This document shows positions 1 to 43,157 of a stretch of DNA of 64,000 nt, piece after piece. This DNA is from a virus. How positions within the stretch are numbered: position 1 is the stretch's first letter; each line of letters begins with the position of its first letter. The notes beneath the pieces are model-generated. The model did no database searches, was not told the DNA's origin, and saw nothing but the letters and a program-made list of their open reading frames with translations. The stretch is from the IMG/VR virus record IMGVR_UViG_3300045988_056971. The stretch is one strand, 5' to 3'. A program made the position numbers and the translations under genes.

Positions 1-1600
1 AGAAGGTCCTGATATAATAGTAAATCCATCTATACCAAAATCTGAGATTCCGGATAAATTGCTAGTAGCTGCGCTATCACCTGTCGGAATAGTTAATTGC
101 ATTGTGCCTTCCACTCCATCAGCTACATATAATACCTATATTTTTATGTCCTATGTTGCTACAATATCCCCTATATCAGCAGTAACTTCAATATTCGTAT
201 CTTCCTATTCATAGTCTACATTTACCTATATGCTTAGAGGTACGATAACAAATACCTTTCCCTAAGAGGGAAAGGAGTTGGGATATCTTAGAGTACAAGT
301 TACATTGTTTTCATCAGAATAGGCTGACTGAATAACATTACTATGCAAGCTGTAGACAATTACATCATCTAATCTGGTAGCGCTAGTTCCTCCAAGCACT
401 TGTCCCATATCTCTCCATACCAAAGAATCTACTTCTAGTATAGACTTACCATCCTTCACATATAACCTATACCCACTAGTAGAAGTAGCATTATTAGACT
501 GTATGAAAGTTCCAGTCTACATAGCTATACTTAAATAAGACCTAAGCTACGTATCTAATGATATAGCTAATTGCTCGTTTATTTTAAATTGTAAGCTTGG
601 ACTGGAAATGGTCATGTTTGACCCGTCATTATAGATTTTCAGATCTTTTATAGTAATTTCATCAAAGTAAGTATTTTTATCATTTCCAGTATTAGATGAT
701 AAAGCAATATACTCAGACAATTGCCCTTCTTTAGCTAAGTAAAGTTTATTTTCTTCTATTACAAATATGATTCCAGCCTTTATACTAGCCTACTGAGCTT
801 CTTCTAAAGTTTCATAATAGAATCCTGCATTAGTTAATGCCGTATATTTCTAATCTGTGGTTACTTCCTTCTGTTCTGCCAAGAATGATACATACGTAGT
901 TCCTACTTCTCCAGCTAGATTTACTTTAGTTCCATCTATAGAAATCCATACTTCGTTGCCTTCTTCAGTAGGTATTAAATATATTCCATTATCTGAAATA
1001 TCATCGGAACTAGATGCAGTTTTTAATATATTAGTGCTAGAAGAGGCAATTTTACCATTCTTTATAATATCAATAAATTTGCCTCCCCACTAGACTTTTA
1101 AATCTCCTTTTGTTTTTATAATAAAATTAGAATCGGTAGAACCAATAGTATTATAGGTTTTACCGAACATATTGGTTTTACCTTCTCCCATATTATTTTA
1201 TAGTCAGTACTTGTCTTCTGTTTCTATTAGAATAACTTATGTGAATCCAATCTAAGTTATGTTCATCTATTAACTAATCAAATGGTAATTTCAATTTTTG
1301 AGCTAAATCAAATAACTTTTTATTTTCCGATTTAGTATCTAAAACTGTACGTATATCGGCAGCCTATCCAGTCATGTGTTGGCTAGTACTAGCTCCTCCT
1401 ACAGCCCTATTCAGAGCTGGGCATCTATAACCACTAGTAACAATAATTGGCTTGCCATATGCCTCTCTAAGAGGGTCTAAAACATTTTCAATAAGAGCTA
1501 TCAAATTTTGCTCTTCCTCTTTAGAAGGAACGTTCTTGATTCCCTTCTACTAAGCAGTAGTGCTTTTCGTTAATTCTTCAATAGTAAAAAATTTCATAAG
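1..1600 (-). CDS. uncharacterised late/structural gene(s), partial at window edge, interrupted by in-frame TAG; boundaries unresolved
   Basis: The minus strand translates to structural-like peptide (e.g. DGVEGTMQLTIPTGDSAATSNLSGISDFGIDGF at 1-120). The only ORF on the track (262-459) ends in TAG, and many in-frame cta triplets follow on the plus strand. Confidence 0.3.
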
Positions 1601-1710
1601 ATTATATGTTTATGTGTTCACAGTAATATATAATCATAATTACAGATTTACCAAAACAAAAATAGGAGAACTTCCCAATCTCGGAAAATTCTCCTATTAA
1701 TTATATAGAG

Positions 1711-2103
1711 TTATTTTATCCAGTTTTTAAGCTGAGCCTTAAATAACTTTTTTGCCAACTAACCACTTAGATAAGCAGCTTTTTCAGAATATGGGTCAAT
1801 ACCAAACTCTTTACATATATGCATTTCAACATGGTTCTTCTCATGGTTATAAGTATCTATAAATTCCTCTGCGGAATCCGGTCTATTTATAACTATGATG
1901 CTTTTGTGTTCTTCTTGGTTAGTAAACGTAAAACCTGAATTTTCGTAATTTTCTATCCTAGAAGCTGCTCTATGTAAAACATCGTCTGGACATCCCAAAT
2001 CCTTTAATCTACTTAAAATGTATTGAACATTGGGATTTTCCACAATTATGCAAACTTCTATATCCCAATCATATCTCTCAAACAATACTCTGTAATGTGT
2101 CAT
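1711..2103 (-). CDS. hypothetical protein with HExxH (HEKNH) motif; one in-frame TAG at 1759-1761 read through to TAA at 1711
   Basis: ORF 1759-2103 ends in TAG. The same frame continues 16 codons to TAA. The HEKNH motif is present. Confidence 0.5.
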
Positions 2104-2501
2104 ATCACATCCTCCCAGTCTACCATAGTTCCGTTAGCTACCATAGTAGCATACCATCTCCTCATAGTAGTGCCATCTCCAGCGTCTTCATCGTCTATGG
2201 TATCCTTAATGTATAGAGCAAAATGTCTTTCATCTGTTATACTACTTCCGTAGTAATCAGCCTTACACATATTGCCAACAAATACATAATCATATCCAAC
2301 ATTATTTTCTAATTTAATGTTGTTCTGAGTTAATACCTTATCAATGTATTCTTTGGATACTGGCTCTAGGGATTTCCCTCCCTTTTTCATAAAAGAAATA
2401 GCGTATGAACACAAAGCCTTATTGAAATGCCAACCATAGTTTTGTAAGTACTTACGCATATACTTTGGCATATCGTCATACATATCCAAAGCTGCTCTCA
2501 T
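2100..2501 (-). CDS. hypothetical protein (133 aa), TGA stop, ATGA overlap with downstream gene
   Basis: Intact ORF with a TGA stop at 2100-2102 and compact operon spacing. Confidence 0.55.
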   Translation of the reverse strand: MRAALDMYDDMPKYMRKYLQNYGWHFNKALCSYAISFMKKGGKSLEPVSKEYIDKVLTQNNIKLENNVGYDYVFVGNMCKADYYGSSITDERHFALYIKDTIDDEDAGDGTTMRRWYATMVANGTMVDWEDVI

Positions 2502-2502
2502 A

Positions 2503-2715
2503 TCAATAGTATCTTGGGTAGTCCTCGTCGTCGTAATCAGAATCTCTCATTCCACCACGTCTACGTTTTCCGTATCTTTCCATGTAATGCTCACCAGATT
2601 TACTTTCTAGTTCTGATAAACAATGCATCAATTTCTTTCCGTGTTTAACAATTTGTTCAGCACAATCAGAAAGATGTTCAAATTTTGACTCCTGAATTTC
2701 AATTATTGTTGCCAT
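2503..2715 (-). CDS. small hypothetical protein (70 aa), acidic/Tyr-rich C-terminus
   Basis: Intact ORF with a TGA stop. Confidence 0.45.
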   Translation of the reverse strand: MATIIEIQESKFEHLSDCAEQIVKHGKKLMHCLSELESKSGEHYMERYGKRRRGGMRDSDYDDEDYPRYY

Positions 2716-3205
2716 GTTTTTCCTATTTTAAAGATGTGTTAATAAATTCTTTGAACATTTCTTTAAGAGAATTAATTTCTTCCCTCAAAGCCTTATTCTC
2801 TTGCTCTTGTCTCTGTTTCTCAATTATTTCTGGATTTAATTGCTATAGAATTTCGTCACATCCTTTAATAATACTCTAATGTGTTTCAATACTATTAATT
2901 ATATCCAGGCTTCTTTGCTTCATCGAAGAAACTTCACTATTCATTGCTTCTTTGTTGCAGGAAACCACAATATTATTTCCGAAATCCGCAATGTCTCCCA
3001 TTGCAGGTAATTTCTAGAAATTAGCAGATGTGCCGTTTATATCAGCCGTAATATCTACTATCATTTCCTGATTATACATTCCTGGGTTTCCATACTTAGG
3101 AACTGGTACGGATACGTTAGTAACCTTACCAATTTCCAAAGTAGGGACAGAATCTTTATGCAAGATAAATAGCTAATTACTATTCCTTAAATTCTAAAAT
3201 GCCAT
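2699..3205 (-). CDS. hypothetical coiled-coil protein (168 aa) with about 6 in-frame TAG codons
   Basis: Manual translation from ATG 3205-3203 to TGA 2701-2699 gives a coherent peptide (…QEQENKALREEINSLKEMFKEF…) only if TAG is sense. Confidence 0.4.
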
Positions 3206-3549
3206 TATGCAATTCCTGTTAATAATTGTAATGTATTAGTAGTATGCTCAAACCAGCATAGGTAAATTCCTGTTCCAGATATTTGAGCAACTGTTATATC
3301 TGCTCCGTTAAATCCAGTTAATCTCTAAGGATTGCCTCCACCAGAAGTGAAGACAATCGGTAGAGTAGTTGTAGTACCTGTAGGTATAGCCTAGTTAAGT
3401 CTTACGATTAGTAATCCTCTAAATGGCGCACCGATATTACGATGATTGTTAAAATCAAACTACACTTCTGTAGTCGTAACATTTACAGACAAACTACTAA
3501 TAGCTGGTATTCCTCCTCTATTGACATTAATATAAGTAGGTAATAACAT
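3205..3549 (-). CDS. small structural-like protein (114 aa), preceded by an AAGGAGG Shine-Dalgarno-like motif
   Basis: ATG 3549-3547 is preceded by aaggagg. Three in-frame TAGs. TAA stop at 3207-3205. Confidence 0.45.
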
Positions 3550-3563
3550 AGTTACCTCCTTTC

Positions 3564-4592
3564 TTAACCCCAAAGAGAGTTATTACATCCACAGCCATTC
3601 CATCCTGCGTAAGTTCCTAAAGCGTATCCGTTGAATACAGCCTAAGTAGGTACAGCAGTAGCACAGCTATATGGTAATGTTACAGTTTCAGGAAGTTTAC
3701 ACTTAATTCCGTTAACATCACTTTGTAGAGCATTAACAGCAGCAACAATAGGAGAAGTAGCTTGACCTATCATTTGTCCAAATGCAGCAGTCTATTGGGC
3801 ATTGTTGATAACAACAGCCTATTGACTATTCTTTTCACGTAAAGCATCAATCTTATCTAATAGAGCCTGATTCTACATAGCATCAAGCTTAGCTATAATT
3901 TGATTAGTGTTCGCAGTACCTGTGTCTCTAATAGTATTTTGAAGAGAGCAAGTCTGAGTTTGAGTTGCATAAGCAGTATCACAGAATCCTCTTTCTACTG
4001 CACGTCCTACTGAATCTACACTATTAGTAATCTGATAAGTCTGTCTTTCATTTGCTAGTTGATTTTGGTAGCCCTGTTCGATAATAGCTTTTTGTGTGTT
4101 GCAGCAGCAGTTGTTGATTGCCTGGATAACATCGCAATTACCTCTTTCTACGGCATTGATAACTCTTTCAGAAGTGTATCCTACTTGTCCACCTACAGTA
4201 GTAATTGCATTTTGGATATTGCAGCAGCAGTCTTTCAATACTCCAAAGTCGCAATTTAAGTTAGTAGCAAGTTGACCAAGAGCAGCGGAATTACCTTTGA
4301 TTGCGTCCATTAACAACTGAGTATTCTAGTTAGTATTCATCTACTCACGTAGACCAGCTAACTGTCCTTGAATTTCAGCAGATTGTAGGTTCTGACAGTT
4401 GTTGCCTTCACCAAACTCACCTCTGTTCATCCAACGCATCATCCACATCCAAACTAAGTACATAAACGGGTTGTTCCACATTCCGTTTCCGAATCCTCCC
4501 ATACCACCGTTCATCATAGCCATCCAAGGCAGCATCTGGTTAGTACTGTTTTCCTAACCATCAGGTACGATATAAGTTCTTGTATCACTCAT
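3564..4592 (-). CDS. cysteine-rich repeat protein (342 aa) with repeated CCCN motifs; at least 5 in-frame TAG
   Basis: ORF fragments 4341-4535 and 3873-4316 share a frame and are joined by TAG. Start ATG 4592-4590, TAA at 3566-3564. Repeats DCCCNIQNAITTV and NCCCNTQKAII. Confidence 0.5.
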
Positions 4593-4822
4593 AGTTTACA
4601 ATTTAAATGTTAATAATTAATGTTTATCTGTTCTAGAACTACACTATAATATACATTTCTAAGAGTGATATTAGACGATGCTAAAAACAAAATCGGGAAT
4701 CTTAAACAGTTACATTATGTTATCATAATATAAACTATTCAAGACTCCCGATTTCTAACTCGTTGCTGAGTTAATTCTTACTGGACAAAAATATATCTAA
4801 GTCCGCTTTATTCCAAGAAAGT

Positions 4823-5416
4823 TTAATTTAACTTCTATTTTATGAAGCTAATTAAGTTATCTTCTCCGTAAGTTTTAAGTCTGTAGTTTAAGGCAGTGTG
4901 AGACATTCCTATCCTTATTGCCCAAAATCTAATGCTTCCTAATTCTCCATCTATAGATATAAGTTTAGTTCTAACATTATTTAAACTCTTTTTTCTTTTA
5001 GTCTCTTCCGAATTTTTTCTTCCTGTTAGTTTTTCACTTATCCTTTTCTTTCTCTCTGGATGGTCTATGTATCCCTACTTCAAAGACTTGCTCATCTTGT
5101 CTAGACTCTCCTTAGTAAGGGATGTATAACCTCCCTCCTAAATATTATATCCATTATTTATAGAGTCATACTTCTTTATTAAATCTCGCTCTATTTTATT
5201 AGCAGCTTCTTTATTAAGATTCTCATAAAGAATTTCGTGAGTAAAATTTTCCCAGCCATATTTCTATATAGCTCTATGGAATTTAGTACTACTAAAGTAG
5301 TTTTTACCTCCATTTTTCCATCGTTCTATTATATTTGAACTCTATCCCACATATTTTTTACCGTTTATTTTATTGGTATGTACATATACTGAATAGTTTA
5401 GATTATTTTTACTCAT
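4823..5416 (-). CDS. GIY-YIG homing endonuclease (free-standing) with NUMOD/HTH-like C-terminus; about 6 in-frame TAG
   Basis: Translation [24 protein letters not shown](Q)[15 protein letters not shown]…[14 protein letters not shown]…NGYNI(Q)EGG shows the GIY, YIG, R, H, E and N motifs. The C-terminus [24 protein letters not shown] is HTH-like. Confidence 0.65.
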
Positions 5417-5706
5417 TTGCTTGATAAGAATATATCCAAATCGGACTTCTGCCAACTCAATTCTTTAAAACCTTCCTATTTGATTCCTTTCGGAATGAAT
5501 CCATCTCTAACATAATTGTCAAACGTAGCTCTACTAACACCAAGATAATCACAAGCCTAAATTTTACTCATTCTCTAATCTGGATTAGCGATATTCGACA
5601 ATACAGAAATAATCTTACTCTGCTGTTCCATTGTAATATTACAATTATCAGAGTCAATGTCATCTATGAATTTCTGTAACAAAGTTCTTATTATAGACTT
5701 CAACAT
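5413..5706 (-). CDS. helix-turn-helix DNA-binding protein (AlpA/Xis/MerR-like), 97 aa, 3 in-frame TAG
   Basis: ACDYLGVSRATFDNYVRDGFIPKG is an HTH motif. ATGA overlap with the homing endonuclease start. Confidence 0.5.
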
Positions 5707-6110
5707 TTCTTTTTAACTTTAAGATAAATGAACGAAATCATGCTTATTCCAAATAATACTAAGTATACTCTAAGCATCTGTAAATCTCCGATGTTGATTC
5801 CAACATATAAATCATATAGAGCTATGAGGTTAGTTAAGGTAACGAAGTATAAAGGAATCCTATACAAGTAGCAAAATCTGAATACATAAGATATGATGTA
5901 TAAAATTCCGAGAAATGCTAAAGATACTCCTCCAAGGCAACTTAAAATATAGCAATTGATGTTATAGTATGATAATATTGAATGTAATATATCATTTATA
6001 GACAGCACTACTGGAGTATATCTCAATATTATAATAAGTAGCTTATACAGCCTCTTATTTACACTTGCGTTTGATTTTTCCTCCACGTTTAACTCCGGCT
6101 CTTGGTACAT
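5700..6110 (-). CDS. predicted integral membrane protein (136 aa)
   Basis: Intact ORF with several hydrophobic segments and a TGA stop. Confidence 0.5.
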   Translation of the reverse strand: MYQEPELNVEEKSNASVNKRLYKLLIIILRYTPVVLSINDILHSILSYYNINCYILSCLGGVSLAFLGILYIISYVFRFCYLYRIPLYFVTLTNLIALYDLYVGINIGDLQMLRVYLVLFGISMISFIYLKVKKKC

Positions 6111-6130
6111 TAGGTTTCTTTCTTCCCATA

Positions 6131-6421
6131 TTATTCAGAGAAATGAGTTTTAACTGCACTAACTATTTCTTCCATATATTCTACAAAGTCTGCCTTTGTA
6201 GATTCGTAGGTACTATAATTAATATTAATTCTGTCCGAATTAGGTTCTAAATTGTAGTTTCCACTTCCTATTTCTTCTACTAATTCTCCTGGTTTCATTA
6301 CAGAAAAACTTATCCCAATGGAACCGATAGTATCCTTAGTAGCTGTTCCTGTCATTTCCCAGCCTTTTTCCACTTTTGTATCAGAGATTTGATACGTTTC
6401 ATTTGTTTTTACAATTTCCAT
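6131..6421 (-). CDS. hypothetical protein (96 aa)
   Basis: Intact ORF with a TAA stop. Confidence 0.5.
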   Translation of the reverse strand: MEIVKTNETYQISDTKVEKGWEMTGTATKDTIGSIGISFSVMKPGELVEEIGSGNYNLEPNSDRININYSTYESTKADFVEYMEEIVSAVKTHFSE

Positions 6422-6427
6422 AAATTA

Positions 6428-6880
6428 TTATTTTACAAATAAGTCAAATACAATTTCCATCAAGTCTGCAGCTTTAACAGAATTTCCATTAATTTCTACA
6501 TCATTTCCGGAATTAACATCTAGAATATCTGAATACTCTTCCATAGTGATTACATCATCTGGTGTATCTTTAACTTCCTCGAAGCCCTTCTGAATAAGAT
6601 ATTCTTGGTATTCAGAATTAGTTTTATCATTGAGTTCGTTGAATCTTGCTTCTTCTTCCGGAGTCCTTTCGGACTTATTAGCCAATTCTCTAAGTTCATC
6701 AGATATAATCTGATTTGTAAATTCTTGAGTATCATCATCGAATTGCTTCTTAATCTTATTATAAGCCATTCTGATACGCATAATCTTTACTTTTAACTCT
6801 TTTGGGAGTTCTTTGTCACCATCTTTAAGAATAATCTTGGTGATTACATTTTGTTTTGTCAATACATCATTTAACGTCAT
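6428..6880 (-). CDS. hypothetical acidic protein (150 aa)
   Basis: Intact ORF with a TAA stop. Confidence 0.5.
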   Translation of the reverse strand: MTLNDVLTKQNVITKIILKDGDKELPKELKVKIMRIRMAYNKIKKQFDDDTQEFTNQIISDELRELANKSERTPEEEARFNELNDKTNSEYQEYLIQKGFEEVKDTPDDVITMEEYSDILDVNSGNDVEINGNSVKAADLMEIVFDLFVK

Positions 6881-6945
6881 AAATCATTAATTTTTGGTTC
6901 AATCAATTATAGTAATACTCTTTTAATATAAAAACTTAATTTAAG

Positions 6946-9900
6946 TTAAAAACAAAGGAAGAATAACCCAAAACTTCCATCGTTAGTAGATGCATCATCA
7001 GCGGTATTAACATACCAATAATATGTAGACCTAGAACTATAACCACGAATTAAAGTACAATATAACAGAGAATTTGAAGAGTTGCTAGAATTTGATGCAT
7101 TTAAATTTCCGACTGCCCAAACCAATGTAGTATACCATGTCTATCCAGAAGGATAAACAGTTCCTATAGTGTATCTACCAGTATCTCTTCTTGAAGTAGA
7201 GGTTACAAAGTTATAATTCCCTCCATTTTTGGAATATGTAACCGACGTCCCACTGTAGTTATTTATCGTATAAGACGCCCAATATTTTACCATCACCCCG
7301 GTACAAGCGGTTGGAACTCCGCTAGAAAGATATATAGGGGTTCCTGACGAACCAACAGTACTAGTATAGTCGTCAATAGAGTTAGTACCGCTATAATAAG
7401 CTAGTTTGCCAGATGCTCCAGAGTTAACTGTAGCATTTAAGTAATATGTCATAGCAGTAACAGTTCCATTAGTTACATATACTCCTCTATTTGAGGCACC
7501 AGCATTACCCTTGGCGAAGTCCGCTAATGATTTGTAGGAGCCTCCAGCTAACAATACGTAGTTATTACTATTTACTGAACTATGATAAAATCCTCCTGCA
7601 GCAGTTATACTACCTGTATTAAAGAATGATCCTCCACTATTCCATTTAGCAATCCAAGTATATGAATTAGTTCCATTACTAATATTGGTTGCAGAAAATC
7701 CATAAAATCCTAAATCATTTCCTAATCCACCAAAACAAAGAGCATTTCCATTATTGTACTTAGCTCTAAATAAACAATGTGCAGAAGAGGTAGAATTATT
7801 CTAATCTGCGACTATACAATTAGATCTTGTAGCCATAGAAATCCAGCTAGAGCCAGTATAAGGAGCAAGATATCCTGCAGAAGCGTAGAATATTTTGCTA
7901 TTATATACTCTAACATAAGTCGAATCAGTCATATAAATACCACCTCCATATGTTTGGCTATACCATCCTGTACTTCCAGTACTTCTGAACCAGTTTGAAG
8001 TATAAGCAGTACTAAACGTAGGTGAAGTTCTTGAATTAGAGGAAGCTGATACCTTAACATTTGCCCAATAATAATTAGCTGGATCCTTTATATCAGAAGT
8101 ATAGGCTATAGTATACCATGAAGAGAACGATCCCGCAGAAGCATACCTAAAATACATTCTCGTATTATTCGGAAAAGCTAACTATGATACATACTAATTA
8201 GATGTTCCATGTTTGCTTTTAAATAGAGTAATTATCCCATTGGCGTTATCCTATGATACTGGCTTGTTTGAGGCTGAACCTGAGTAAGTGTCATATACTA
8301 ATCTATATCCATCTGATGTCCAACTACTTGGAGAGTTAAGATTACTTATAGAACCATAATATATATAGTTTGCCTTATTAGAATTAGTGGCATAAGGTAC
8401 TGTAATATTATTAGTAGTACCTGCCTTTGTCCATGTAAGATAGTTTCCATTAGTTCCCAATGAAGTAACGTACCTTCCGTCAGCAGTAGTCTAGGTTAAA
8501 ATTAACTTCCAGCTTCCCCAAGCAGAAGAGCTTGTGGATGTTCTCATGTATAAATTTCCACCATCTGTAAATCCTAGCTAATGCGTCTAACCTCCTGAGA
8601 AATCTGTAGTTCCTCCATAAGGCTTAAAGTGTAAGATTCCATGGTAAGTTCCTCCATTACTTAGTCCATCTGTGCTATTATATTTAAATTCAAATCTAGC
8701 TCCGCTAGAGAACTATGCTGGAGTATTATTAGTACTTCTAGTATCATGAGATTGTAAGTACCCAGAATAAGATGAGTATGGGACAGTTAAATTATTAGTT
8801 GTTCCGTTTTTAACCCAAGTCACATATGTACCATTTGTCCCTAGAGATGTAACATATCTAGTATCTCCATACCTATGATAATTATAACTATCTAGAATTA
8901 ATCTCCAACCTCCTGCAAATGTTCCTGTAGCTACCGCCCCATTGACAATCTATCTCATATATAATCCATGAGTAGTTCCCATATTATTAGGTCCAGATAG
9001 AATATCTGTATAGTATGTAGAACCCCAATACATCCTCAAGCACTAACCGTTTTTATAGGCTGCATCCTAACTATCAGAGGGCATTCCCCACTATCCTCCA
9101 GCAGCAGTTCCTCCTACCACAAAGCCTCCAGAGGAGTAATAAGTTAACCCAGTATTCTAAACCGAAGAAGATGAGTTAATTCTTGAAGATGCAGTAGCGT
9201 ATGGGACTGTTAGATTGTTAACTACTCCATTCTTAGTCCACGTTAAGTAATTTCCACTTGTACCTAAAGCAGTGACGAAATTAGCAGGATTAATGTAGGC
9301 GGTATAATTAGAGGAATCCAATATTTTTTTCCATCCTCCACTAAGAGTAGTAGCTATTCTCCAATATAGTCCAGTAGAAGTATTAGAAGACATTAATATC
9401 TACCCATACCATCCAGACGCTGTCTACATAGTAAATACTCCAAATGCATCTACTCCACTAGGCTTATCTGCAACAGAATTACTGCCACCAGCGTGATATA
9501 AATATCCGGGAGTAGTTTTGTTAGCAAGAGTATCACTTATTGTATGAGATAGTATTCTATTAGCTGTAGCAGCATTACCAGTAATTGAGATTCCCCAAGT
9601 ACCGCTTGCACCTCCACCGGTTTTAGTTACAGTATAATTAGTATAATTTCTGTGAGTTAATACTCTAGTCCAAGCAGAAGTATAACCACTTCCGTTGCTT
9701 GTATAGAATAACATTTCATTAGCAGCAGGATTACTTACTCCTGAGTTATTATGTGGAGTTATATATAACTACGTCTTATTCGTATCACTAGCTCCCCACT
9801 AGAATATAGCTGTTCCCGCCAATGGAATATTTACACCAGTATCTGTAGATACATATCCATTATTAGCGTAAGCCCAAGAACCTCGTTCAGCAAATGCTAC

Positions 9901-12830: not shown

Positions 12831-12833
12831 AGA

Positions 12834-14009: not shown

Positions 14010-14010
14010 A

Positions 14011-14433: not shown

Positions 14434-14435
14434 GA

Positions 14436-24546: not shown

Positions 24547-24686
24547 CGGAAGCGTTCGAGAATTAACCTACTAACACCCTTCATTCAACACTACGTTATC
24601 TTTTGCCTAGAGGCAAGGATATTACTTAGCAAACTAAAAAAAATAATAAAATGTTTCTAAATATATAATAACTCGACATTGGAATT

Positions 24687-24780: not shown

Positions 24781-24845
24781 ATCAACGGTTTTTAGAAGTA
24801 ATATCCTACGATTTATCATCTAAATCGATTTTTATATTGTATATC

Positions 24846-26663: not shown

Positions 26664-26664
26664 A

Positions 26665-26877: not shown

Positions 26878-26879
26878 AT

Positions 26880-30295: not shown

Positions 30296-30450
30296 TCTAG
30301 TTTAATAATTGCTATTTAATAAATTCGTGATTATCTAGTCTTACAGGTAGGTTAATAAAACAAATTAGATTAAGAATATCTTGATAATCTGGTTTATATC
30401 CCTTTTTGAGTTTTCTTAGAAAATCCTCATACCTTTTAATAGCCTTTCTC

Positions 30451-31182: not shown

Positions 31183-31249
31183 ATTGTAATAATTAAGACT
31201 CAATAGGCCACTAACCATATTGAGCAGGGGTAGAAAAAGGTTTCCATTT

Positions 31250-34030: not shown

Positions 34031-34038
34031 CATACTTA

Positions 34039-34500
34039 TCATATACAAGTTCCGCAATAGCCTCGTTTGTCTTGTCTATCAATTCCTTCTCTTTCATAAC
34101 ATAAATTATGTTGTTCTGGAGGAAGTTTAGTAGCGTTATAATACTTAACTCTTTGTAACTTCCTACTTCTTAATTCTTCCTTAATAAATGGCAGAAATTC
34201 TTCGTCTGGTAAATCTGCTATTATTACTAATGGCATTTCTGACCTATCAAAGTTAAAAGAGACTTTATACCCAACTGGGTCTAAACTCTCAATATCTAGT
34301 CCGCCTATATACTCCATTTTGTACAAGTCCCTCATATATTCTAGGATCACTTGTTTCAACTCTGTATGGGTCATCATATTCGTTTCTTTGCATATTAAGT
34401 TCAGGAGTTTTCTTAGTTGGAATAACTCCAAATCTTTTAATTCCTCTCTCGTCGTAATAGTAACCAAAATCTTGGAACTATTCAACTTCTTTCTCCACAA
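34039..34500 (-). CDS. hypothetical protein (about 153 aa; start uncertain, possibly TTG)
   Basis: ORF with a TGA stop. The listed start corresponds to TTG, and an in-frame stop lies 14 codons upstream. Confidence 0.4.
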   Translation of the reverse strand: MWRKKLNSSKILVTITTREELKDLELFQLRKLLNLICKETNMMTHTELKQVILEYMRDLYKMEYIGGLDIESLDPVGYKVSFNFDRSEMPLVIIADLPDEEFLPFIKEELRSRKLQRVKYYNATKLPPEQHNLCYEREGIDRQDKRGYCGTCI

Positions 34501-34666
34501 GTACGGGCTGTCTTCCTGATAGCTCTTGGTCTGCTAACTCAGTCATACCTACAGCGGCTACAATATCATACTTACCCTTATTTTCATCATTATATGCAGT
34601 GAACTATTCTAGCATTTCTTCGAACCATATAGTATGGCAATAGTCTTCTATAAAGGCGGCTGTTAA

Positions 34667-36652
34667 ATCAGTATGCTATTCGATTATAGTTTTTGTAGCA
34701 GGAGTTCCATACTATTTAGTAGTTCCATTTCTAACGTCAGTTAGAGTAGCTCTTGGGCGCTTCATAAAATAGTTAAGGCATCCTTTTTCTCTAGCCCAAG
34801 TAACCATACCCATACGAGTAGCTTCTATATTTATTTTACAATTATAATAGCGAGCTAAACACATAGCTATTTTATAGGCTTCTCTGATGTCTCCAGGTCT
34901 ATCCTTGTACATAGCAACATACTGAGGGTCATTCATACCAAACGCACGTTTCTTAATCGTTATGCAGAAATCAGACGGGTCTCTGGTTTCCTTAGAAGTC
35001 TAATTCGCTCCAATATCAATACCGTCTATACCTGCTACGTATAAGTCTCGCATCTCTTTATAAACTGGAACTTCAAAATCCTAGCCGTTATCTTCTGCCT
35101 CCTATCTAAGCTTTTCCATTTGTTCTTTATATAAGTCAGACCATATTGGATGCTCTAGAATTTTTACTTTACCATTGCTATTAGGAATCCATTTAAAACC
35201 ATCAATGTTATCCTAAGTATGTTTATTATTTTTGTAAAAATAATCAATATAACCACATTCGGGTCTTGGACCAATTTGTTTAAGTCTTATATTAGCTATC
35301 TATTCGGCAACTAAAATTTTATTAAACTTATTAACACCTTCTAGATTAAATGCTTCTTCTGCATTCCAACAACGTTCAGCACATTTCTTTAGGTAGTCTT
35401 CTGGTACAGCTAACAGATTATCTCGCTCCTCCTATAAGAATTTCTTATATTCTACAGTATTACACACTCCTCTGTGGTCCATAAATTCTGGATTCAAAGA
35501 TTGTATAAAGTATGGAATAAAGAATCCACTCTCTATAGTAGTCCCATCCTAAGTCCAATTATGTCTAAATGGAAGAATCTTATATGCTCTTGGATTATAG
35601 TAAATCTTTTTTAAGCCCTCTAGAGGAGCACCCATATCACCGCCAGTACCTCCAAACAACATTGTTCCACGAGGCATACCTTGAACTTCACAAAGTTCTT
35701 GACCTTGTACCACAGCGGTATCAAGTCCAGGCCAGGAACCAGCTTCATCATATATTAATAAATCTACACGGTCTCCACGAATGTTAGATGGTTTAGCTCC
35801 GTTAATTGCCACAACCTCAGATTTAAATCCTACGTCTTCAAACTAACCATTTATTTTGATTTGTTTACCTGATTTCTTTCTCAAATCCTGGTCAATAAGT
35901 CGCAATTTAAAAAATCCTCCTCCAGTACAGGTATTTAAGAATGTAAGAGCATTGTCAAACTTACTAAAGGTACCCTTAAGGAAGGTATCATTAAAGCAAG
36001 TAATCATAACCCTACTTCTTCTAATAACAGAGTACATACGAGCAGAAAGAGAGGCGTTTATTTCAGAGAATCCAATAGAACGAGCTTTCATTAAAGCTGC
36101 GTGCTTGTGTAGCACTCTAGCCATCTATAGATAATGAAAGAACATATAATGTGATGCAAAGAATATTGGGAAGTCATTATCAGTACCCTCACCAGAGGCT
36201 TTCTACTAGTCAATAGTAGGTAACTAATAGAAATTTAAGAAGAAGTAATTATCTCCAGTAATGGTGTACCCATTAACTGTCATTCCATACTTACATCTTC
36301 TATATTGCTCTTTCCAAAATTCGTTGTACCGCTTACTATCTCTAAGGTAGGGACAGTATTGACCAGTTCTTTTATATACTTCCCTAGTCTCGGTAAACCA
36401 ATCTGGATTAAAGTCCAATCCATGAGTTTCGTCAATAGGTCTGTATCCAGTTATTTCATAAGATAAGGTAGGGTCAAATACTTCTATTTTATCTCCTATT
36501 TTAACATCCCAATAGTCAGAATTTCTGACCCTTTCCTCTCTTATTTTCCATACTAATTCTCTAGCTTCTTTAGCATCCTCTTTCTATTCTTTTTCTCTTA
36601 CCTAATCTACAATATTCTATATTTCTTCAGGTAATATCTTTTTTCTTGGCAT
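34667..36652 (-). CDS. terL: terminase large subunit (661 aa), about 10 in-frame TAG
   Basis: Five ORF fragments share frame 1. Read-through runs from ATG 36652 (AGGAGA RBS) to TGA 34667. It has a Walker A-like motif (LMKARSIGFS), a Walker B motif (DLLIYDEAGSW) and a C-terminal nuclease-like region. Confidence 0.6.
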
Positions 36653-36664
36653 AATTAAAAGTCT

Positions 36665-37218
36665 CCTGGGTCAAAACCATCCACAGCCCCAGCTCTAACA
36701 GTAGATTGTTCAGTAAGTTCTTTCTTAACCTAGTCTTCTAGTGTTATGAGTTCTTCATGAACTTTGTGAAGGGTAGCCATTTCCTTCATTACTTTTTCAG
36801 CCTGGAATACTGGTTTGCCGTTATTATCACGCTCATTTAAATCTACAATAGTTTCGAAATAATCAATAAACTAGTCTGCAGCTCTTTTAGCTGCTTCTAG
36901 TAATTTTATTGACTTGTTTGAATCTTGTAACGCTCTGTATTTCCTACAAGCTTCTCTAAATATAGGGTCATTAAATTCCGACTCTGTCAATCCAGAATCG
37001 CTAATAGCTTCGTCATGTCGTTCATGTTCCGAATACTAACTGTATGGACTTTTCCAGTCTATAGCTAAATAAATGTAAGATAGTTCTCTAGTAGCTCTAT
37101 CCTTTTCTGCAGATTTATCCCTCTAGATTAAAGCCTTAAATTCCTTAACTAGCAATATCTCTGGTTCATTTATTTCTAGCTATTTAGTTAAAGTGTTATA
37201 GTTAAATACATTCATAAT
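36665..37218 (-). CDS. hypothetical protein upstream of terL (possible small terminase subunit), about 184 aa, 3 TAG
   Basis: Manual translation MNVFNYNTLTK(Q)LEINEPEILLVKEFKAL…; the call rests on position only. Confidence 0.3.
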
Positions 37219-37261
37219 CATTAATCATTATCATACACATTAGATAATCTTATTATTTCTT

Positions 37262-37831
37262 TTTCATTTTGGAACCGCACTTATTGACTTTCATTTTTGA
37301 GCCACAAGCGTCTTTCTTAGCATATTGTTTTCTGTCAGGAACCCATTTTCCTCCCTGGAAATTACCCTTATGTCCTTTATTGGCCATGATTTCCTAATCA
37401 TTGTATTTATTGATTGATATAGAATCTCTTGAGGCTTCGTCTCTAGCAGATTTCATATCTTTCTTATACTAAGCTCTTCCAGCCTTAAATTTATCAACTT
37501 CATTAGCTTTCTTAGTAACTTTAGTTCCTTTTTGTGCTTTCTGGCAAGCTTTACAGATTCTACCGCCTTGCTTAAAATATACAAGCTCTTCTCCTTCTGG
37601 ACATACTCCTTTTAGCTTCTTATAATACTCAAGCTTAGCTCCAAGCCTAGCCATTACTCCTCCTTGCATTTTCTGCATAAATTCCTGATACTTAGCTTTA
37701 ATGCCGTCTTCTCCTAATTGTTCAGCATAAGCTTGTAAATCCTATTCAGATTGTACTTGTATTCCCTACGCAGCGGCATCTTGTATTAGATATGCCATAA
37801 ATGCTTTTTGTAATTCTTCCTAGTTAGCCAT
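37262..37831 (-). CDS. Lys-rich small basic protein (about 189 aa), 3 in-frame TAG
   Basis: ORF 37469-37678 ends in TAG and continues in frame into …MANKGHKGNFQGGKWVPDRKQYAKKDACGSKMKVNKCGSKMKKK. Confidence 0.4.
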
Positions 37832-38041
37832 TACTCTTCTACTTTAATTAAATCCTTAGTATTAAACACTGCTTCCTACATAAGTCCGGAATCAGTAAAC
37901 CATCTACATCTTAATCCTCGTAATCCTTGGTTATCTTTAAATAAAGCTGCTTCTCTTCTTAGAACAAGCATAACTGGAGAATGCATTACTTTACACTACC
38001 GTAAAGTAACACAATCCCCAGGCTTAAAATAAACTTTTTCA

Positions 38042-38644
38042 TCAATTGTTTCCATACTTCAATTCGTTTCTTCTTTCAGTTAGCTTTTCGTTAACTACAG
38101 CCATAATTCTGTTCTCATTAACTACAACAAATCCAAACTTGTAGAACGGAACCATGCACTCGCTAGCTATTGTATAGAATACTATATCTCCAGGTTTTAG
38201 GAACTCACACTTGTACCCAACCTCAATAACAGTACCCACTTTAATAAATTGTTGTTCTTCTTCTATTTCTCCTGTTTCATTAGATTTATATGTTGGAGCA
38301 AATCCACCTAAGTCTGTAATTAATCCACTCTTAGTAGTTTTAATTTTTTGAAACGGATTTTGTTCGAAAGGTTTAATTAATGCATACCCATACATGGGCA
38401 TAATTTCTACACCATTCATATCCTCAGATAATGATTTGGCGTAAGATTCTAAAGCTGCATTATGTTTAGAGAATTTATCTTCTAGTTCATCTACTGCTGT
38501 ATTGAATCTTTCCTGTTTTTCTCTTAATAAAGTTTTATCTGCAGCTTCTCCATTTACTATAAGGTGCTGTCCTGTACCTTCCATACCAGTTATAGCTAGT
38601 GCTAGTTTCTCATTACTGTTCAATTCTGTTCTTAAAGTTTCCAT
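38042..38644 (-). CDS. hypothetical protein with GroES-like (Hsp10-fold) C-terminal region; no TAG
   Basis: Intact 200-aa ORF. …GLITDLGG…GEIEEEQQFIKVGTVIEVG…KPGDIVFY resembles the co-chaperonin fold. Confidence 0.4.
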   Translation of the reverse strand: METLRTELNSNEKLALAITGMEGTGQHLIVNGEAADKTLLREKQERFNTAVDELEDKFSKHNAALESYAKSLSEDMNGVEIMPMYGYALIKPFEQNPFQKIKTTKSGLITDLGGFAPTYKSNETGEIEEEQQFIKVGTVIEVGYKCEFLKPGDIVFYTIASECMVPFYKFGFVVVNENRIMAVVNEKLTERRNELKYGNN

Positions 38645-38652
38645 AATTCATT

Positions 38653-38991
38653 TTACCATTTACATAAATCACAATGTTCATCTTCTATTCTAGTTTTGTT
38701 CTCTAGTATACAACCACATTCCTCACATACTTCTCCAAATGAAGTCTGTAATTTATGAGGACAAGTATTACAAATATTTAATCTCGTGGTTGCTAAATCT
38801 TGATTAATTCCAAATATATGGAAATATATACTCTTCAATATTACTAAAGGTTTAGTAAATATTGCTTTAATCCATTTCTTTGGCATCTTTTCAGTAGGTT
38901 CTTGAGTCATAAGTATATAAGCCTTAGTAGGGTTAGCCATTACTGGAGTCCCATATAGTAATAAATTATTTACCATTTCTTCGCAGGACAA
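38653..38991 (-). CDS. zinc-ribbon protein (112 aa)
   Basis: Intact ORF with CxxC…CxxC pairs. Confidence 0.45.
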   Translation of the reverse strand: MSCEEMVNNLLLYGTPVMANPTKAYILMTQEPTEKMPKKWIKAIFTKPLVILKSIYFHIFGINQDLATTRLNICNTCPHKLQTSFGEVCEECGCILENKTRIEDEHCDLCKW

Positions 38992-39185
38992 TGCTTCTTC
39001 TCATTAGGTATCTTTAATTCCAGTAGACATCCACATCCTTTTATATACCCTTCTTTTGGACCAATACTTATGTCATTGTTTTCTGGATTTAAATACAACT
39101 GTCCATTACATATTGCATCTTCTTGATTACATATTGGACAGCGTCTACATATTTTCCATCTTTCTTCTATTTCCTCTAGTGTCAT
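38970..39185 (-). CDS. zinc-ribbon protein (71 aa)
   Basis: Intact ORF with CRRCPIC…CGC…HC. Confidence 0.45.
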   Translation of the reverse strand: MTLEEIEERWKICRRCPICNQEDAICNGQLYLNPENNDISIGPKEGYIKGCGCLLELKIPNEKKHCPAKKW

Positions 39186-39187
39186 AA

Positions 39188-40102
39188 TTAATATTCAATA
39201 CGTTGACGTTTCTTTTTATTTTCTGCCAATATAGATTCTTTCTTGTAAAAAGAAAGCATTCTTATTACTTCATCTTTTAAATATGGTAAGTGATATACTG
39301 TCATGTTATCACTGTGGTCGAAGTGTACTAAAACTAAGTCTTCAATTTCAAATTCTGGGTTTTTCTTCTGAATCATCCAGGCGTAAGTACTTAGCTGAAG
39401 GGCATAATGCCAATAATTAACATCATCTAAATTATTTAGAGGATACTTCATCTTAACTGATGTCTTAGTTTTAGAATTAAAGAAACTCTTTGTTTCTATT
39501 TTTTTATTAGTCTTCCAGTCACCAATAATTATCTTATTACCTCTTTTAACTAATAAGTCAATTTGTCCAGCTATTCTTAGTTTTCCGTCCTCAGATACTC
39601 TAGAGATTAGATACTCAGGATATACCCCATTCTCCAAATCTAGATTGTTATAGTCTTTTATACACTCAAACTTGCCACCTATTTGATATTTACTTAGGTC
39701 TATATCCTTCTTCTTTTTGTAAAAAGAGTTTTCCAAATCTGCATGGATTCTAGTTCCTCTCTCGCAAGAGTTTCTGTTCTCCATATCCCATGCATCTAAG
39801 ATAGCTTGTTGTTCTTTATTAAACTCGTCTTCTGTAATGTTATGAAGTTCAAGTAGAACTTTGTCAAATTTCTTAGTATTCAGCAGAGATTTTTTCTCGA
39901 TAGCCCAATCTTCTTTAGGTAAGAGTTTCTCTAGTGCTTTATATGCTGACCAGAACTCTTTATCAAAGGGTTGGGTGAAAGAATGAATTAAAGTCGTTAC
40001 AGATATAAATTTCTGTTCTGGCTTTGTAACATCATAATAAATATGAGCTTCCTCTTCGAAAGCTATGTTCCCATTTTGTTTTGTAATTTTACTTTTGTCC
40101 AT
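39188..40102 (-). CDS. PD-(D/E)xK family nuclease (RecB/Cas4/YqaJ-like exonuclease), 304 aa
   Basis: Intact ORF. GQIDLLVKRGNKIIIGDWKTNKK matches the D…(D/E)xK motif. Confidence 0.5.
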   Translation of the reverse strand: MDKSKITKQNGNIAFEEEAHIYYDVTKPEQKFISVTTLIHSFTQPFDKEFWSAYKALEKLLPKEDWAIEKKSLLNTKKFDKVLLELHNITEDEFNKEQQAILDAWDMENRNSCERGTRIHADLENSFYKKKKDIDLSKYQIGGKFECIKDYNNLDLENGVYPEYLISRVSEDGKLRIAGQIDLLVKRGNKIIIGDWKTNKKIETKSFFNSKTKTSVKMKYPLNNLDDVNYWHYALQLSTYAWMIQKKNPEFEIEDLVLVHFDHSDNMTVYHLPYLKDEVIRMLSFYKKESILAENKKKRQRIEY

Positions 40103-40216: not shown

Positions 40217-40558
40217 ATGTCTAATATGACAAAAATGGTAACATTTGGATGTCCAATTTTTAAAAACGGGTCAGGCATTCATATTAAAGAGAAAAACAAA
40301 GGTAAATTTACTGCCTCTGCTAAGGCTGCAGGATAGTCTGTACAGGAACATGCTAAATCTGTACTAAACAATCCTAATGCTACTCCTCTTCAGAAGAAGC
40401 GTGCTAACTTTGCTAGAAACGCGGCTAAATGGAAACACGAAGATGGAGCTAAGATACATAAACCAAGTGGACATAGATCTATTCTAGATAATGGATGGAT
40501 TCCTACTACTAGATTAAAGAAAGGAAATTATGGATTAATTAAAACAAGAAAGCAATGA
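40217..40558 (+). CDS. conserved-looking hypothetical protein (113 aa) with one in-frame TAG
   Basis: ATG 40217; …FTASAKAAG(TAG)SVQEHAKSVLNNPNATPLQKKRANFARNAAKW… is a coherent read-through to TGA 40556-40558. Confidence 0.45.
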
Positions 40559-41216: not shown

Positions 41217-41262
41217 AAATAGGCGAACTTAGACAATTAAGTCTAGGCTCGCCTATTTTTAT
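41217..41262. terminator. bidirectional rho-independent terminator between convergent genes
   Basis: A 10-bp perfect stem (aaataggcga / tcgcctattt) is followed by tttttattt. Confidence 0.55.
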
Positions 41263-41462
41263 TTACTATTATACGTACAAGTGATTCTGTTTGGCTCTTC
41301 CCACCAAGGTTTATCTGAAAGTGGAGTTCTGATGCTATTGGGCCAATTTATAATTGGAGTAGTTTCCTCTACTATAGCCTCCATTATTTTAAATAATGTA
41401 TCCAAGTCTAGCTCTGGAAGCAGCTCATGAATATTAGTTATTGTTTTCTTATAATTTATCAT
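41259..41462 (-). CDS. hypothetical protein (67 aa)
   Basis: Intact ORF. Confidence 0.4.
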   Translation of the reverse strand: MINYKKTITNIHELLPELDLDTLFKIMEAIVEETTPIINWPNSIRTPLSDKPWWEEPNRITCTYNSK

Positions 41463-41671
41463 ATCCTTTAAAAGTGTTGTTAATAATTACGTAGTATCTA
41501 CTGATATATCAGTACGATACACTTAGCTTATTTAAGTTGTCTAGATAATCTAAGAACCATTGTTCGTTTTGTTTTCCTTCTTCTACAATAGTATTAATTA
41601 AAGATTCTGTAGCTAATAGTGTTATTTCTGCTAGTTCCTCTAATTCCGATTTAGTAAGTTCGTTATATTTT

Positions 41672-41986
41672 TCAATCAAGTTTAACATAATCCATCCAGT
41701 CTTTTATATATGATTTACATTCTTCCAAATCTGGATAGATACTTGTTATAGAGCATCCAGTTTTCGGATTTTTAAAGTGGTGCATCTTAGCCTCTTCTTT
41801 TTTCTCCTCTTCTGTATTTCTATTTAATGTTCTATTCCAATAGTTGTACTTTTCATCTAACATTTCCATATCACATTCCTCTAATATTTTCATATTAGGG
41901 TTATTCATTATCTTGTCGTATTTTCTCTTTAAATTAGAGACTTTGACAACATCATTTCCATTTAATACAACTGCACACTGTTTCAT
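41672..41986 (-). CDS. hypothetical protein (104 aa)
   Basis: Intact ORF. Confidence 0.45.
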   Translation of the reverse strand: MKQCAVVLNGNDVVKVSNLKRKYDKIMNNPNMKILEECDMEMLDEKYNYWNRTLNRNTEEEKKEEAKMHHFKNPKTGCSITSIYPDLEECKSYIKDWMDYVKLD

Positions 41987-42210
41987 TTCAATACCTTATA
42001 AGTACATATCTTGCCTATCTGTTTTCCTTGAATTGTTATTTGCGGAAGAAAATAGCAGGCTTGATTCTCAAATTCTTGAGGTACAAAGATATAATCAAAC
42101 TTACTTCCAACTACCTTCTCACAAACTTTATTCCAATCGTCTCCCTCTTCTATAATAAGAGTTTTAGCTCCTGTTGGAGTTACTACATAATTCTCATTTA
42201 ATTTTATCAT
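41983..42210 (-). CDS. hypothetical protein (75 aa; track ORF trimmed to ATG 42210 to avoid the tRNA)
   Basis: The N-terminal 25 codons of ORF 41983-42285 overlap the tRNA gene. An internal ATG lies at 42210-42208. Confidence 0.4.
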   Translation of the reverse strand: MIKLNENYVVTPTGAKTLIIEEGDDWNKVCEKVVGSKFDYIFVPQEFENQACYFLPQITIQGKQIGKICTYKVLK

Positions 42211-42227
42211 AACTATTAATTTTGGCG

Positions 42228-42299
42228 TTGCCCTACTAGGATTCGAACCCAGACTAAATGATTTAGAGTCATCTGTGCTGACCATTACACCATAGGGCA
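42228..42299 (-). tRNA. amber suppressor tRNA, anticodon CUA (reads UAG); body resembles tRNA-Gln
   Basis: Hand-folded cloverleaf: acceptor tgcccta/tagggca, anticodon stem gatga/tcatt, loop ctCTAaa, T-arm ctgggTTCGAATcctag. The D-arm tggtgtaatggtcagcac is nearly identical to the tRNA-Gln(TTG) D-arm at 55397-55468 (tggtgtaatggtagtcac). Confidence 0.8.
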
Positions 42300-42839
42300 G
42301 TAACTTATTTCTCTTTTAGAGATTTATTTTCTGCTGCCAATTTCTCTAGTTCTTTTCTTAATTGTTCATTTTCGTGAAATAAAGCCTGCATAGTAGCGTT
42401 GATATTAGCTAATAGTATTCTCATTTGAGCAACCTATTCATACATAAGCTTTCAGTTGTTCAATTCTCTTTTTAGCTATATCTGACAATGCCATTTTGAA
42501 TTTAGCAATACCAGCTCTTACTGTTTCTAACTTGCCGCTTTCTAAGCATTCTTGTATTTTATGAACTTCAAGCTCTCCTAGATATTCGCATACATCTATA
42601 AATAAATCATCATCTAGAGATTCTAAATATTTCTGGAATTGGTCTACCTCTTCATTAGCTAGACAGCTTTCTTCCTTCTATCTTTCATAAGATATTAATA
42701 AGAACAAAGAATCGTCGGTAGATTCGGACTTAATAGTTAGCCCATTACCAGACATATAATATTCTTGATTCGTATTAATTGCCTCAACTAGCTATTTAAA
42801 CTAGTCCTAATTTAACAATGTTTCTAAGTCTGTAATCAT

Positions 42840-43157
42840 AATTGTTTTCTTTTTAGTTATATACAACAATAACCTCCGAAAAGTTAAACGCAAAGTTAAA
42901 AAATTCTAATTCAAATATTATACATATTTTATATATTAAGGGGAAAGCCGGTACAGGTACTTTATATAAATAGCCCCCTGGGGTTATTATAAATTCCGAC
43001 TTTTATATTTGGAGGGCAATTACCTAGATTCCAAAAATTCATAGAGTGAGTGTAGTGGCGGTCCACAACCCCTTTAGTCCCCCCCTGTATATTGATATAA
43101 AACTAAAACAAAAACAAAAATCAATTTCCAGTATTAACATTTTAAAATTTCAAGATT
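42840..43157. promoter_or_regulatory. divergent strand-switch/regulatory region between late (minus) and early (plus) arms
   Basis: No ORFs. Unusual C/G tracts (agccccctggggtt; ccacaacccctttagtccccccctg) sit in an AT-rich background. TAtaTTTGg resembles the Bacteroidetes -7 promoter motif (TAnnTTTG). Confidence 0.35.

Follow-up and report, generated by a model that had tools for sequence, protein, structure and literature searches.

The stretch of DNA considered here comprises 64,000 nucleotides (nt) of the virus record IMGVR_UViG_3300045988_056971 of IMG/VR (hereafter the window) and amounts to about one third of a phage genome of about 180-195 kb, a size taken from the contigs of relatives. 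The window has a GC content of 34.9% and consists of two arms with opposite GC skew, which meet near 42-44 kb. The left arm holds mostly minus-strand genes for virion structure and lysis, the right arm plus-strand transfer RNA (tRNA) and auxiliary genes, and 23 tRNA or tRNA-like genes and three endonuclease genes are present in total (Table 1). In the structural and lysis genes the amber codon TAG is a sense codon, which by comparative codon analysis stands for glutamine (Gln; genetic code 15), and a suppressor tRNA with the anticodon CUA lies close to the junction of the arms. An earlier note on this DNA had described the recoding as genome-wide; it holds for the left arm, but the wider term is overstated for a window that represents a third of the genome.

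The effect of the code on the left arm was measured as minus-strand coverage of positions 1-42840 by open reading frames (ORFs) of at least 100 amino acids (aa). Under the standard code this coverage is 0.359 and the longest ORF has 306 codons; with TAG as a sense codon the values are 0.911 and 2175 codons. The 2.5-fold gain on re-calling genes is in line with the expectation that standard-code callers would shatter this arm. The fragmentation under translation table 11 extends over about 38 kb and includes the genes for the terminase large subunit (TerL), the portal, the tail proteins, the diversity-generating retroelement (DGR) and lysis, so that annotation needs code 15. Codes with TGA or TAA as sense codons were tried likewise and rejected (coverage 0.380 and 0.423, no comparable gain).

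The 37 minus-strand genes of the left arm (12,997 codons) contain 256 in-frame TAGs next to 210 CAA and 91 CAG codons, and three small gap ORFs found later add six TAGs; within the recoded block TAG accounts for about 2% of the codons and, among those for Gln, for about 46%. As a terminator it is absent from both arms (0 of the 56 stops of called genes), with 22 TAA and 14 TGA stops in the left arm and 15 TAA and 5 TGA stops in the right. The earlier note had described genes ending on TAA or TGA with ATGA overlaps, and five such four-base overlaps could be located in the left arm (2100-2103, 5413-5416, 11391-11394, 15119-15122 and 41983-41986). The 18 fragment ends that it had listed all read CTA on the plus strand and are in-frame minus-strand TAGs inside long read-through genes; its same-frame run of up to 6.5 kb is the gene of the giant protein in Table 1. 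Reading TAG as sense also restores full-length family matches of the reverse transcriptase (RT) and GIY-YIG proteins, as claimed, and in addition those of TerL, the portal and the M15 peptidase. PHROG and Pfam matches cross the TAG positions in each of these and in the tail protein. The recoding is real and lies far beyond chance.

If the TAGs were instead real stops, belonging to pseudogenes, caused by assembly or sequencing errors, or leaky and giving mainly truncated products, the arm would appear fragmented, as it does under table 11. Against this, the interruptions are all due to a single one of the three stop codons, the frame is maintained over as much as 6.5 kb, and the same pattern recurs in the independent assemblies of relatives, including 286 positions at which TAG faces TAG. 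Public metagenomes contain thousands of TerL relatives, the closest cluster of which (97% identical) alone counts 2,365 member sequences. Leaky stops meet the further difficulty that 19-39 TAGs per essential gene would leave essentially no full-length product. We give practically no credence to this explanation.

Nucleotide-context or positional bias of TAG, which might hint at programmed read-through, was sought in the recoded genes and none was found. The base after TAG shows the distribution seen after CAA/CAG and after codons in general (chi-square p about 0.7-0.8), and TAG positions are uniform along the genes; after true stops, T follows in half of the cases. For the genes with 39, 29, 28 and 19 TAGs, read-through of about 0.94, 0.92, 0.92 and 0.89 per codon is needed to obtain 10% full-length product, and about 0.98, 0.98, 0.98 and 0.96 to obtain 50%. 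Because the gene with 39 TAGs requires at least about 94% per codon for even 10% product, these figures argue for near-complete reassignment and not for leaky suppression.

The meaning of TAG was derived from codon comparison, in which all minus-strand ORFs of the window were aligned to the ORFs of six fetched loci of relatives (L001-L006, all TAG-recoded, with L001 and L002 nearly identical). The comparison was made on DNA codons because database translations of these relatives already carry Q at TAG. Apart from TAG itself (the 286 positions mentioned above), the commonest partners are CAA (187) and CAG (82), together 269 of the 775 non-TAG partners, followed by codons for glutamate (Glu, 102), lysine (Lys, 78), threonine (43) and leucine (Leu, 43). 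With substitution frequencies taken from the same alignments, the log-likelihood of Gln exceeds that of the next-best amino acid by more than 800 nats. Since CAA is two mutational steps away from TAG, its pairing with TAG is not an effect of mutational neighbourhood.

The TerL protein offers a second view on this question, with 79 full-length homologues among the best 150 representatives (clustered at 50% identity). Gln is the commonest residue in the TAG columns (15%), whose profile is like that of columns with real Gln codons. In columns 451 and 683, both TAG in the window, 62 and 47 of the 79 homologues have Gln, respectively. The pairing with CAA/CAG and the conserved Gln columns of TerL lead us to conclude that TAG means Gln by comparative codon analysis, which the earlier note had regarded as most plausible; in the alignment to homologues that it had proposed, TAG faces mainly Gln codons and not gaps.

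Readings of TAG as pyrrolysine, or as one of the amino acids one mutational step from TAG (tyrosine, tryptophan, Glu, Lys, Leu or serine), could point to the label "Pyl" that ARAGORN gives to the suppressor tRNA, to Glu and Lys as the second and third commonest partners, and to several TerL TAG columns in which distant homologues prefer Glu or aspartate. The label is, however, the program's default name for this anticodon, and no pyl genes were found among the window proteins in Pfam and PHROGs. Real Gln columns show the same Glu and Lys pattern, CAA is the commonest partner despite its two mutational steps, and the likelihood gap and the tRNA itself, an ordinary cloverleaf closest to tRNA-Gln, likewise oppose such readings. 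A meaning other than Gln therefore has, in our judgement, a very small chance of being correct.

The standard code is found in a more distant relative (L008, TerL 46% identical), which lacks in-frame TAGs, has an ORF coverage of 0.86 under the standard code and carries CAA at column 451. Relative L007 (TerL 62% identical) and all closer relatives are TAG-recoded. Judged from these loci, the genetic code changes within the lineage.

The earlier note had placed a tRNA with a CTA anticodon at 42228-42299 on the minus strand, and both ARAGORN and Rfam (tRNA model, 66.3 bits) find a canonical tRNA there, one nucleotide longer (Table 1). It has 73 nt, an ordinary cloverleaf, a U1-A72 pair, G10, A37 and A73. 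The reported likeness of its D-arm to the tRNA-Gln of the window is evident as well: positions 8-19 are identical, U1-A72 and A73 occur in both, and the overall identity of 70% is the best within the window, compared with 64% for the next tRNA. Other tRNAs of the window also start with U1, so that the tRNA evidence taken alone is suggestive and not decisive for Gln. A second tRNA with a stop anticodon was sought in the window with ARAGORN and Rfam and none was found, the two tRNAs seen by Rfam only reading UGC and CAU.

The suppressor gene stands on its own, on the strand opposite to the array of 22 tRNA or tRNA-like genes. It is syntenic in four of five close relatives (L001, L003, L005 and L006), always after the homologue of gene 42438-42839 and before the TAG-free small genes; L003 carries a second copy, and in L004 no tRNA-CUA was found within the fetched locus. 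The copies of the relatives differ by compensatory changes in the acceptor stem while the anticodon arm is nearly invariant, which indicates selection on the gene as a tRNA.

TAG is not only frequent in one set of genes but missing from two others. The first of these comprises 21 plus-strand genes of the right arm, with 3,832 codons and neither in-frame TAGs nor TAG stops, although TAG occurs 187 times in their other two frames and the frequency of the left arm would predict about 75 in frame. As these genes use TAG neither as sense codon nor as stop, they read the same under either code. The earlier statement that plus-strand early genes never use TAG as a stop is correct for these 21 genes; beyond them, three plus-strand genes carry sense TAGs and two small ORFs end on TAG. 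One is the ORF already mentioned in the earlier note (TAG at 60594-60596), which does have a TAA shortly after, three codons later and not four; the other is a small ORF at 46651-46809, followed by TAA/TGA after six codons. TAG ends with a nearby TAA or TGA have likewise been reported for Zeta crAss-like genomes.

The second set is an island in the minus-strand arm, consisting of two parts on either side of a plus-strand module (Table 1). It has about 990 codons and no TAG, where about 20 would be expected (P(0) about 3e-9). Its homologues are TAG-free in six relatives (L001, L003-L007) down to 62% TerL identity, and their neighbours have 3-40 TAGs each. The last TAG-free gene overlaps at its 3' end with the first recoded gene after the island (37831-38055, minus strand, 2 TAGs), so the change of code falls inside what looks like one transcription unit. 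Two further minus-strand genes (2100-2501 and 5700-6880) also lack TAG. In L006, the island exonuclease (4813-6747) has 644 aa with a LAGLIDADG match and still no TAG.

Recoding does not strictly follow arm or strand. Two of the plus-strand exceptions are endonuclease genes within the tRNA array, whose sense TAGs fall inside the regions matched by Pfam. These two together with the minus-strand GIY-YIG gene, that is, the three free-standing endonucleases, have a TAG to CAA/CAG ratio of 14:2; the remaining recoded genes stand at 251:301 (Fisher p 0.0013). The position of the two plus-strand ones among tRNA genes recalls the GIY-YIG endonuclease SegB in the tRNA cluster of phage T4. The third exception is the conserved gene 40217-40558 with a single TAG, whose homologues in all relatives are longer and heavily recoded (21 TAGs in L001), with TAG exchanging with CAA/CAG. 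This gene belongs to a variable module which lies opposite to the structural strand between the small genes following the suppressor tRNA and the exonuclease (1178-5426 on the minus strand in L007, 1979-5259 on the minus strand in L001, 40217-41214 on the plus strand in the window). The module is heavily recoded in the relatives, and in L007 it encodes a Phage_lysozyme match and a protein with a lytic-transglycosylase-like motif (recognised by eye); the window version is reduced to two short genes, one with an HExxH motif and membrane segments. Three further TAG-containing ORFs (44730-45119, minus strand; 55990-56325 and 59556-60167, plus strand) were rejected as spurious because they overlap better genes or tRNAs and have an odd composition.

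The two TAG-free sets bear on the question whether the code is switched at all. The host itself might read TAG as Gln, with the phage following that code throughout infection, and nothing in the window shows the code of the host. A host of this kind would leave the 3,832 plus-strand codons and the roughly 990 island codons without TAG unexplained, given a frequency of about 2% elsewhere, and equally the maintenance of this avoidance in six relatives; dual-code compatibility predicts avoidance in two gene sets, a uniformly recoded host does not. The phage moreover carries its own suppressor, and published host predictions for its group are standard-code Bacteroidota and Firmicutes. We consider a recoded host very improbable.

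The recoding, the Gln meaning, the suppressor tRNA with its conservation and the gene-by-gene distribution of TAG are established here by sequence comparison. Taken together, we think it highly probable that the window belongs to a crAss-like phage, most probably of the Zeta group, which uses code 15 with its own tRNA-CUA decoding UAG as Gln and which keeps TAG-free genes readable before the switch. Following the published model of Borges et al., the host would use the standard code, and the TAG-free genes of the tRNA and auxiliary arm and of the island would be translated first; the lack of TAG in both would permit their correct translation before the code changes. The tRNA-CUA would then be expressed and probably charged with Gln by the Gln pathway of the host. 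As the suppressor accumulates, release factor 1 (RF1) would be outcompeted, and until then the TAG-containing genes would presumably be untranslatable. Structural, DGR, lysis and homing-endonuclease genes with TAGs might be translated thereafter, so that the code would act as a post-transcriptional (translational) gate.

Several observations weigh against this reading or limit it. A search of the window's proteins with Pfam and PHROGs, in which about half of them are without a family match, yielded no gene for a release factor, an aminoacyl-tRNA synthetase or an anti-RF1 factor. The recoded gene upstream of the suppressor tRNA and the presence of recoded genes on both strands do not fit a simple switch of one operon; given that upstream gene, the tRNA does not strictly stand at the head of the late arm, where the earlier note had put it. 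The Gln identity of the tRNA is suggested by a 70% similarity and a U1-A72 pair common to several other tRNAs of the window. Membership in Zeta is likely, not proven, and follows from the match of genes and of a published profile. The labels "late" and "early", used already in the earlier note, and the putative timer function derive from gene content; the distribution of TAG agrees with the model, with the three plus-strand genes that carry sense TAGs as exceptions. A scan for sigma-70 promoters and terminators around the tRNA and the arm junction gave counts no higher than in shuffled sequence; it did not extend to promoters of other kinds, for example those used in Bacteroidota, to which the hosts of crAss-like phages are assigned in the literature.

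Up to 39 TAGs per gene, which need about 94-98% read-through, and a window without recognised release factor or synthetase led us to the tentative idea that the phage may neutralise host RF1 by an unrecognised factor encoded among its TAG-free genes. The TAG-free island would then mark a translational checkpoint within one transcription unit and not a promoter switch. We rate this idea as possible but doubtful.

Table 1. Features of the 64-kb window (positions in nt; TAGs are in-frame sense codons; L001-L006 are loci of relatives).
Feature	Position	Strand	Support and remarks
Recoded structural and lysis block	1..38055	-	all genes stop on TAA/TGA; TAG-free exceptions 2100-2501 and 5700-6880
Peptidase M15, 134 aa, 4 TAGs	1193..1597	-	PF08291, E 6e-24
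GIY-YIG endonuclease, 197 aa, 5 TAGs, 0 CAA/CAG	4823..5416	-	PF01541
Repetitive tail-fibre-like protein, 1482 aa, 29 TAGs	6946..11394	-	
Giant protein, 2171 aa, 39 TAGs, leucine-rich-repeat-like sequence	16213..22728	-	phrog_24896 (unknown function)
DGR reverse transcriptase, 430 aa, 4 TAGs	23254..24546	-	phrog_1423, E 6e-112
Tail protein, DGR target, 605 aa, 6 TAGs	24846..26663	-	phrog_5302
Portal protein, 723 aa, 28 TAGs	31926..34097	-	phrog_6547; 7QOG
Terminase large subunit, 787 aa, 19 TAGs	34289..36652	-	phrog_6681, E 6e-60, residues 92-711; full-length homologues
TAG-free island, part 1	38042..40102	-	PD-(D/E)XK exonuclease 39188-40102, ORFs of 71 and 107 aa, GroES-like 38042-38644
Conserved gene, 1 TAG	40217..40558	+	tblastn against L001-L006
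TAG-free island, part 2: four small genes directly downstream of suppressor tRNA	41259..42210	-	no TAG in homologues of L001, L003-L006
Suppressor tRNA, anticodon CUA (reads UAG)	42227..42299	-	ARAGORN; Rfam tRNA, 66.3 bits
Recoded gene upstream of suppressor tRNA, 133 aa, 4 TAGs	42438..42839	-	conserved in relatives, TAG exchanging with CAA/CAG
Plus-strand arm: 22 tRNA or tRNA-like genes and auxiliary genes	43158..64000	+	ARAGORN, Rfam, codon counts
PD-(D/E)XK (PDDEXK_5) endonuclease in tRNA array, 3 TAGs	48124..48585	+	PF11645, E 3e-20, residues 9-136 across TAGs
tRNA-Gln(UUG), closest paralogue of suppressor in window	55397..55469	+	ARAGORN; alignment
GIY-YIG endonuclease in tRNA array, 6 TAGs	60780..61415	+	PF01541, E 9e-13

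By its sequence the portal is crAss-like, and TerL appears to be so too. All named matches of TerL in a tblastn search of GenBank phages are crAss-like, with 25-28% identity over about 80% of the protein, and the portal matches the structure of the crAss001 portal gp20 (7QOG, E 1.4e-12). The exonuclease of the TAG-free island matches phrog_298 and sits inside the structural block, and a PD-(D/E)XK nuclease within that block is a signature of crAss-like phages (Yutin et al. 2021, PMC7886860). GenBank phage records contain no close DNA match, the best having 65-72% identity over parts of TerL. Neither the crAss-type major capsid protein, for which a candidate of 524 aa has no sequence match in the Protein Data Bank, nor a block of giant transcription proteins with the RNA polymerase motif DxDxD was identified in the 64 kb of the window. 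Relatives have mobile insertions: L004 and L005 have a split portal gene, and one TerL homologue (P0003, 1131 aa) contains an intein (PF05204, PF05203, PF14528).

Relatives encode proteins of 2123-2170 aa at the syntenic position of the giant protein, which presumably belongs to the tail or interacts with the host. The M15 peptidase is likely the endolysin and is no more recoded than the genes around it (30 TAGs per 1000 codons, against 20 in those genes). The DGR is complete at 23254-26663 and consists of the RT, a template repeat (TR, 24670-24767) in the gap between RT and target gene, and a variable repeat (VR, 24871-24968) at the 3' end of the target gene. Both repeats are 98 nt long, and all of their 23 mismatches are at adenines of the TR (A-to-N on the coding strand). 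DGRs have been reported from Zeta crAss-like phages (PMC12386605).

The tRNA array of the right arm (47953-62832, plus strand) has 21 tRNA genes, counting the two found by Rfam only (62487-62559, loop UGC; 62777-62832, CAU, a partial match). Duplicated genes exist for Tyr, Cys, Met and Gly, and two tRNAs are unusually long, namely Cys at 60675-60760 (86 nt, with an extra arm) and Met at 61562-61641 (80 nt). Upstream of the array, at 44388-44652 on the plus strand, a full-length RAGATH-14 RNA (RF03145, 174 bits) is followed 26 nt further on by a 68-nt tRNA-like cloverleaf. Its "anticodon" arm has a loop of 4 nt and no anticodon; ARAGORN assigns an anticodon of 2 nt, and the tRNA model of Rfam gives no match. 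The cloverleaf might serve as a signal for 3'-end processing of the RAGATH-14 RNA. A relaxed Rfam search of the right arm returned only tRNAs and RAGATH-14.

Auxiliary genes of the TAG-free arm are located at 46938-47792, 52337-54847, 56434-56841 and 57608-58792 (plus strand). Their products include a protein that weakly matches radical SAM, a membrane protein of 172 aa with an SPFH/Band-7 protein of 657 aa after it, a phosphoesterase like the CPD of tRNA ligase, possibly for tRNA repair, and an AAA ATPase. Neither a convincing ORF nor an Rfam match occurs in the gaps at 55470-56334 (865 nt), 43605-44387 (783 nt) and 61958-62486 (529 nt), of which the one between tRNA-Gln and tRNA-Met (55470-56334) lies within the most GC-rich part of the window.

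The closest published counterparts are Zeta crAss-like phages, a group defined in Yutin et al. 2021 (PMC7886860). The Zeta genomes ctHMy13, ctoVY1, cthgQ11 and 3717_85572 (PMC12386605, 2025, Table 1 rows 13-16) have 176-189 kb, about 34.5-35% GC and 23-27 tRNAs; they encode a CTA suppressor tRNA, show amber suppression and possess a DGR with amber codons in the RT gene. The window resembles this published profile in its GC content, its number of tRNA or tRNA-like genes, its CTA suppressor and its DGR, and further in the forward block of tRNA and tRNA-metabolism genes, the mobile endonucleases and the concentration of recoding in the structural part. The size of 145-192 kb given for Zeta phages can be compared with the 180-195 kb of the relatives' contigs, an indirect measure for this phage as only relatives were measured. 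Numerous tRNAs, introns, inteins and homing endonucleases also characterise the group, to which the tRNA and endonuclease genes of the window and, in relatives, the TerL intein and a LAGLIDADG insertion correspond. TerL, portal, the genome size of relatives, tRNA load, DGR and amber recoding together make Zeta membership likely, and the likeness to reported late-gene recoding of crAss-like phages, pointed out in the earlier note, holds up.

Borges et al. (bioRxiv 10.1101/2021.08.26.457843) interpreted the code switch of recoded crAss-like phages as a lysis timer. Their phages share with the window a replication or early part that is compatible with the standard code, recoded structural and lysis genes, and a suppressor tRNA. 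The bias for the recoded codon in endonucleases is also shared: in TGA-recoded Agate phages, an intron homing endonuclease of the early region strongly prefers it. Unlike those phages, which possess a "code-change module" of release factor and synthetase, the window has none that we found, and its M15 peptidase is not extra recoded. Code 15 of gut crAss-like phages was confirmed by metaproteomics (Peters et al. 2022, PMC9523058). The assignment of TAG to Gln is the same in both cases, by peptide evidence there and by comparative codon analysis here.

Lak megaphages, with genomes of about 540 kb, and phAss-1 (Phassvirus), with 136 kb and three suppressor genes, represent different lineages. As in the window, TAG is Gln in these phages, CTA suppressor tRNAs are present, and standard callers shatter the TerL, portal and tail genes (PMC10607447). 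Some Lak phages encode release factor 2, which was not found in the window.

The phenomenon as such is already known: TAG as Gln, the CTA tRNA, recoding of late genes, an amber-containing DGR RT, early genes that avoid TAG and recoded homing endonucleases have all been published, and code-15 translations of this lineage are already present in the public protein collection. Two small refinements concern the TAG-free island, which is conserved near the suppressor tRNA, and the position of the code boundary within what appears to be an operon. The window provides a further clean case of two gene sets, one readable under both codes and the other only after the switch, and the gene-by-gene map of TAG, with its island and its TAG-rich endonucleases, could guide work on how and when the switch happens. 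The points on which the earlier note had proposed to test its claim, namely the anticodon of the tRNA, the alignment to homologues and the lengthening of genes, were all examined, and none of them spoke against it.

A familiar cellular parallel is supE (glnV) of Escherichia coli, a Gln-type tRNA with the anticodon CUA, which inserts Gln at UAG in competition with RF1. Its suppression is partial and is tolerated by the cell genome-wide. In the phage, by contrast, TAG constitutes nearly half of the Gln codons in essential genes, and their expression would require near-complete read-through.

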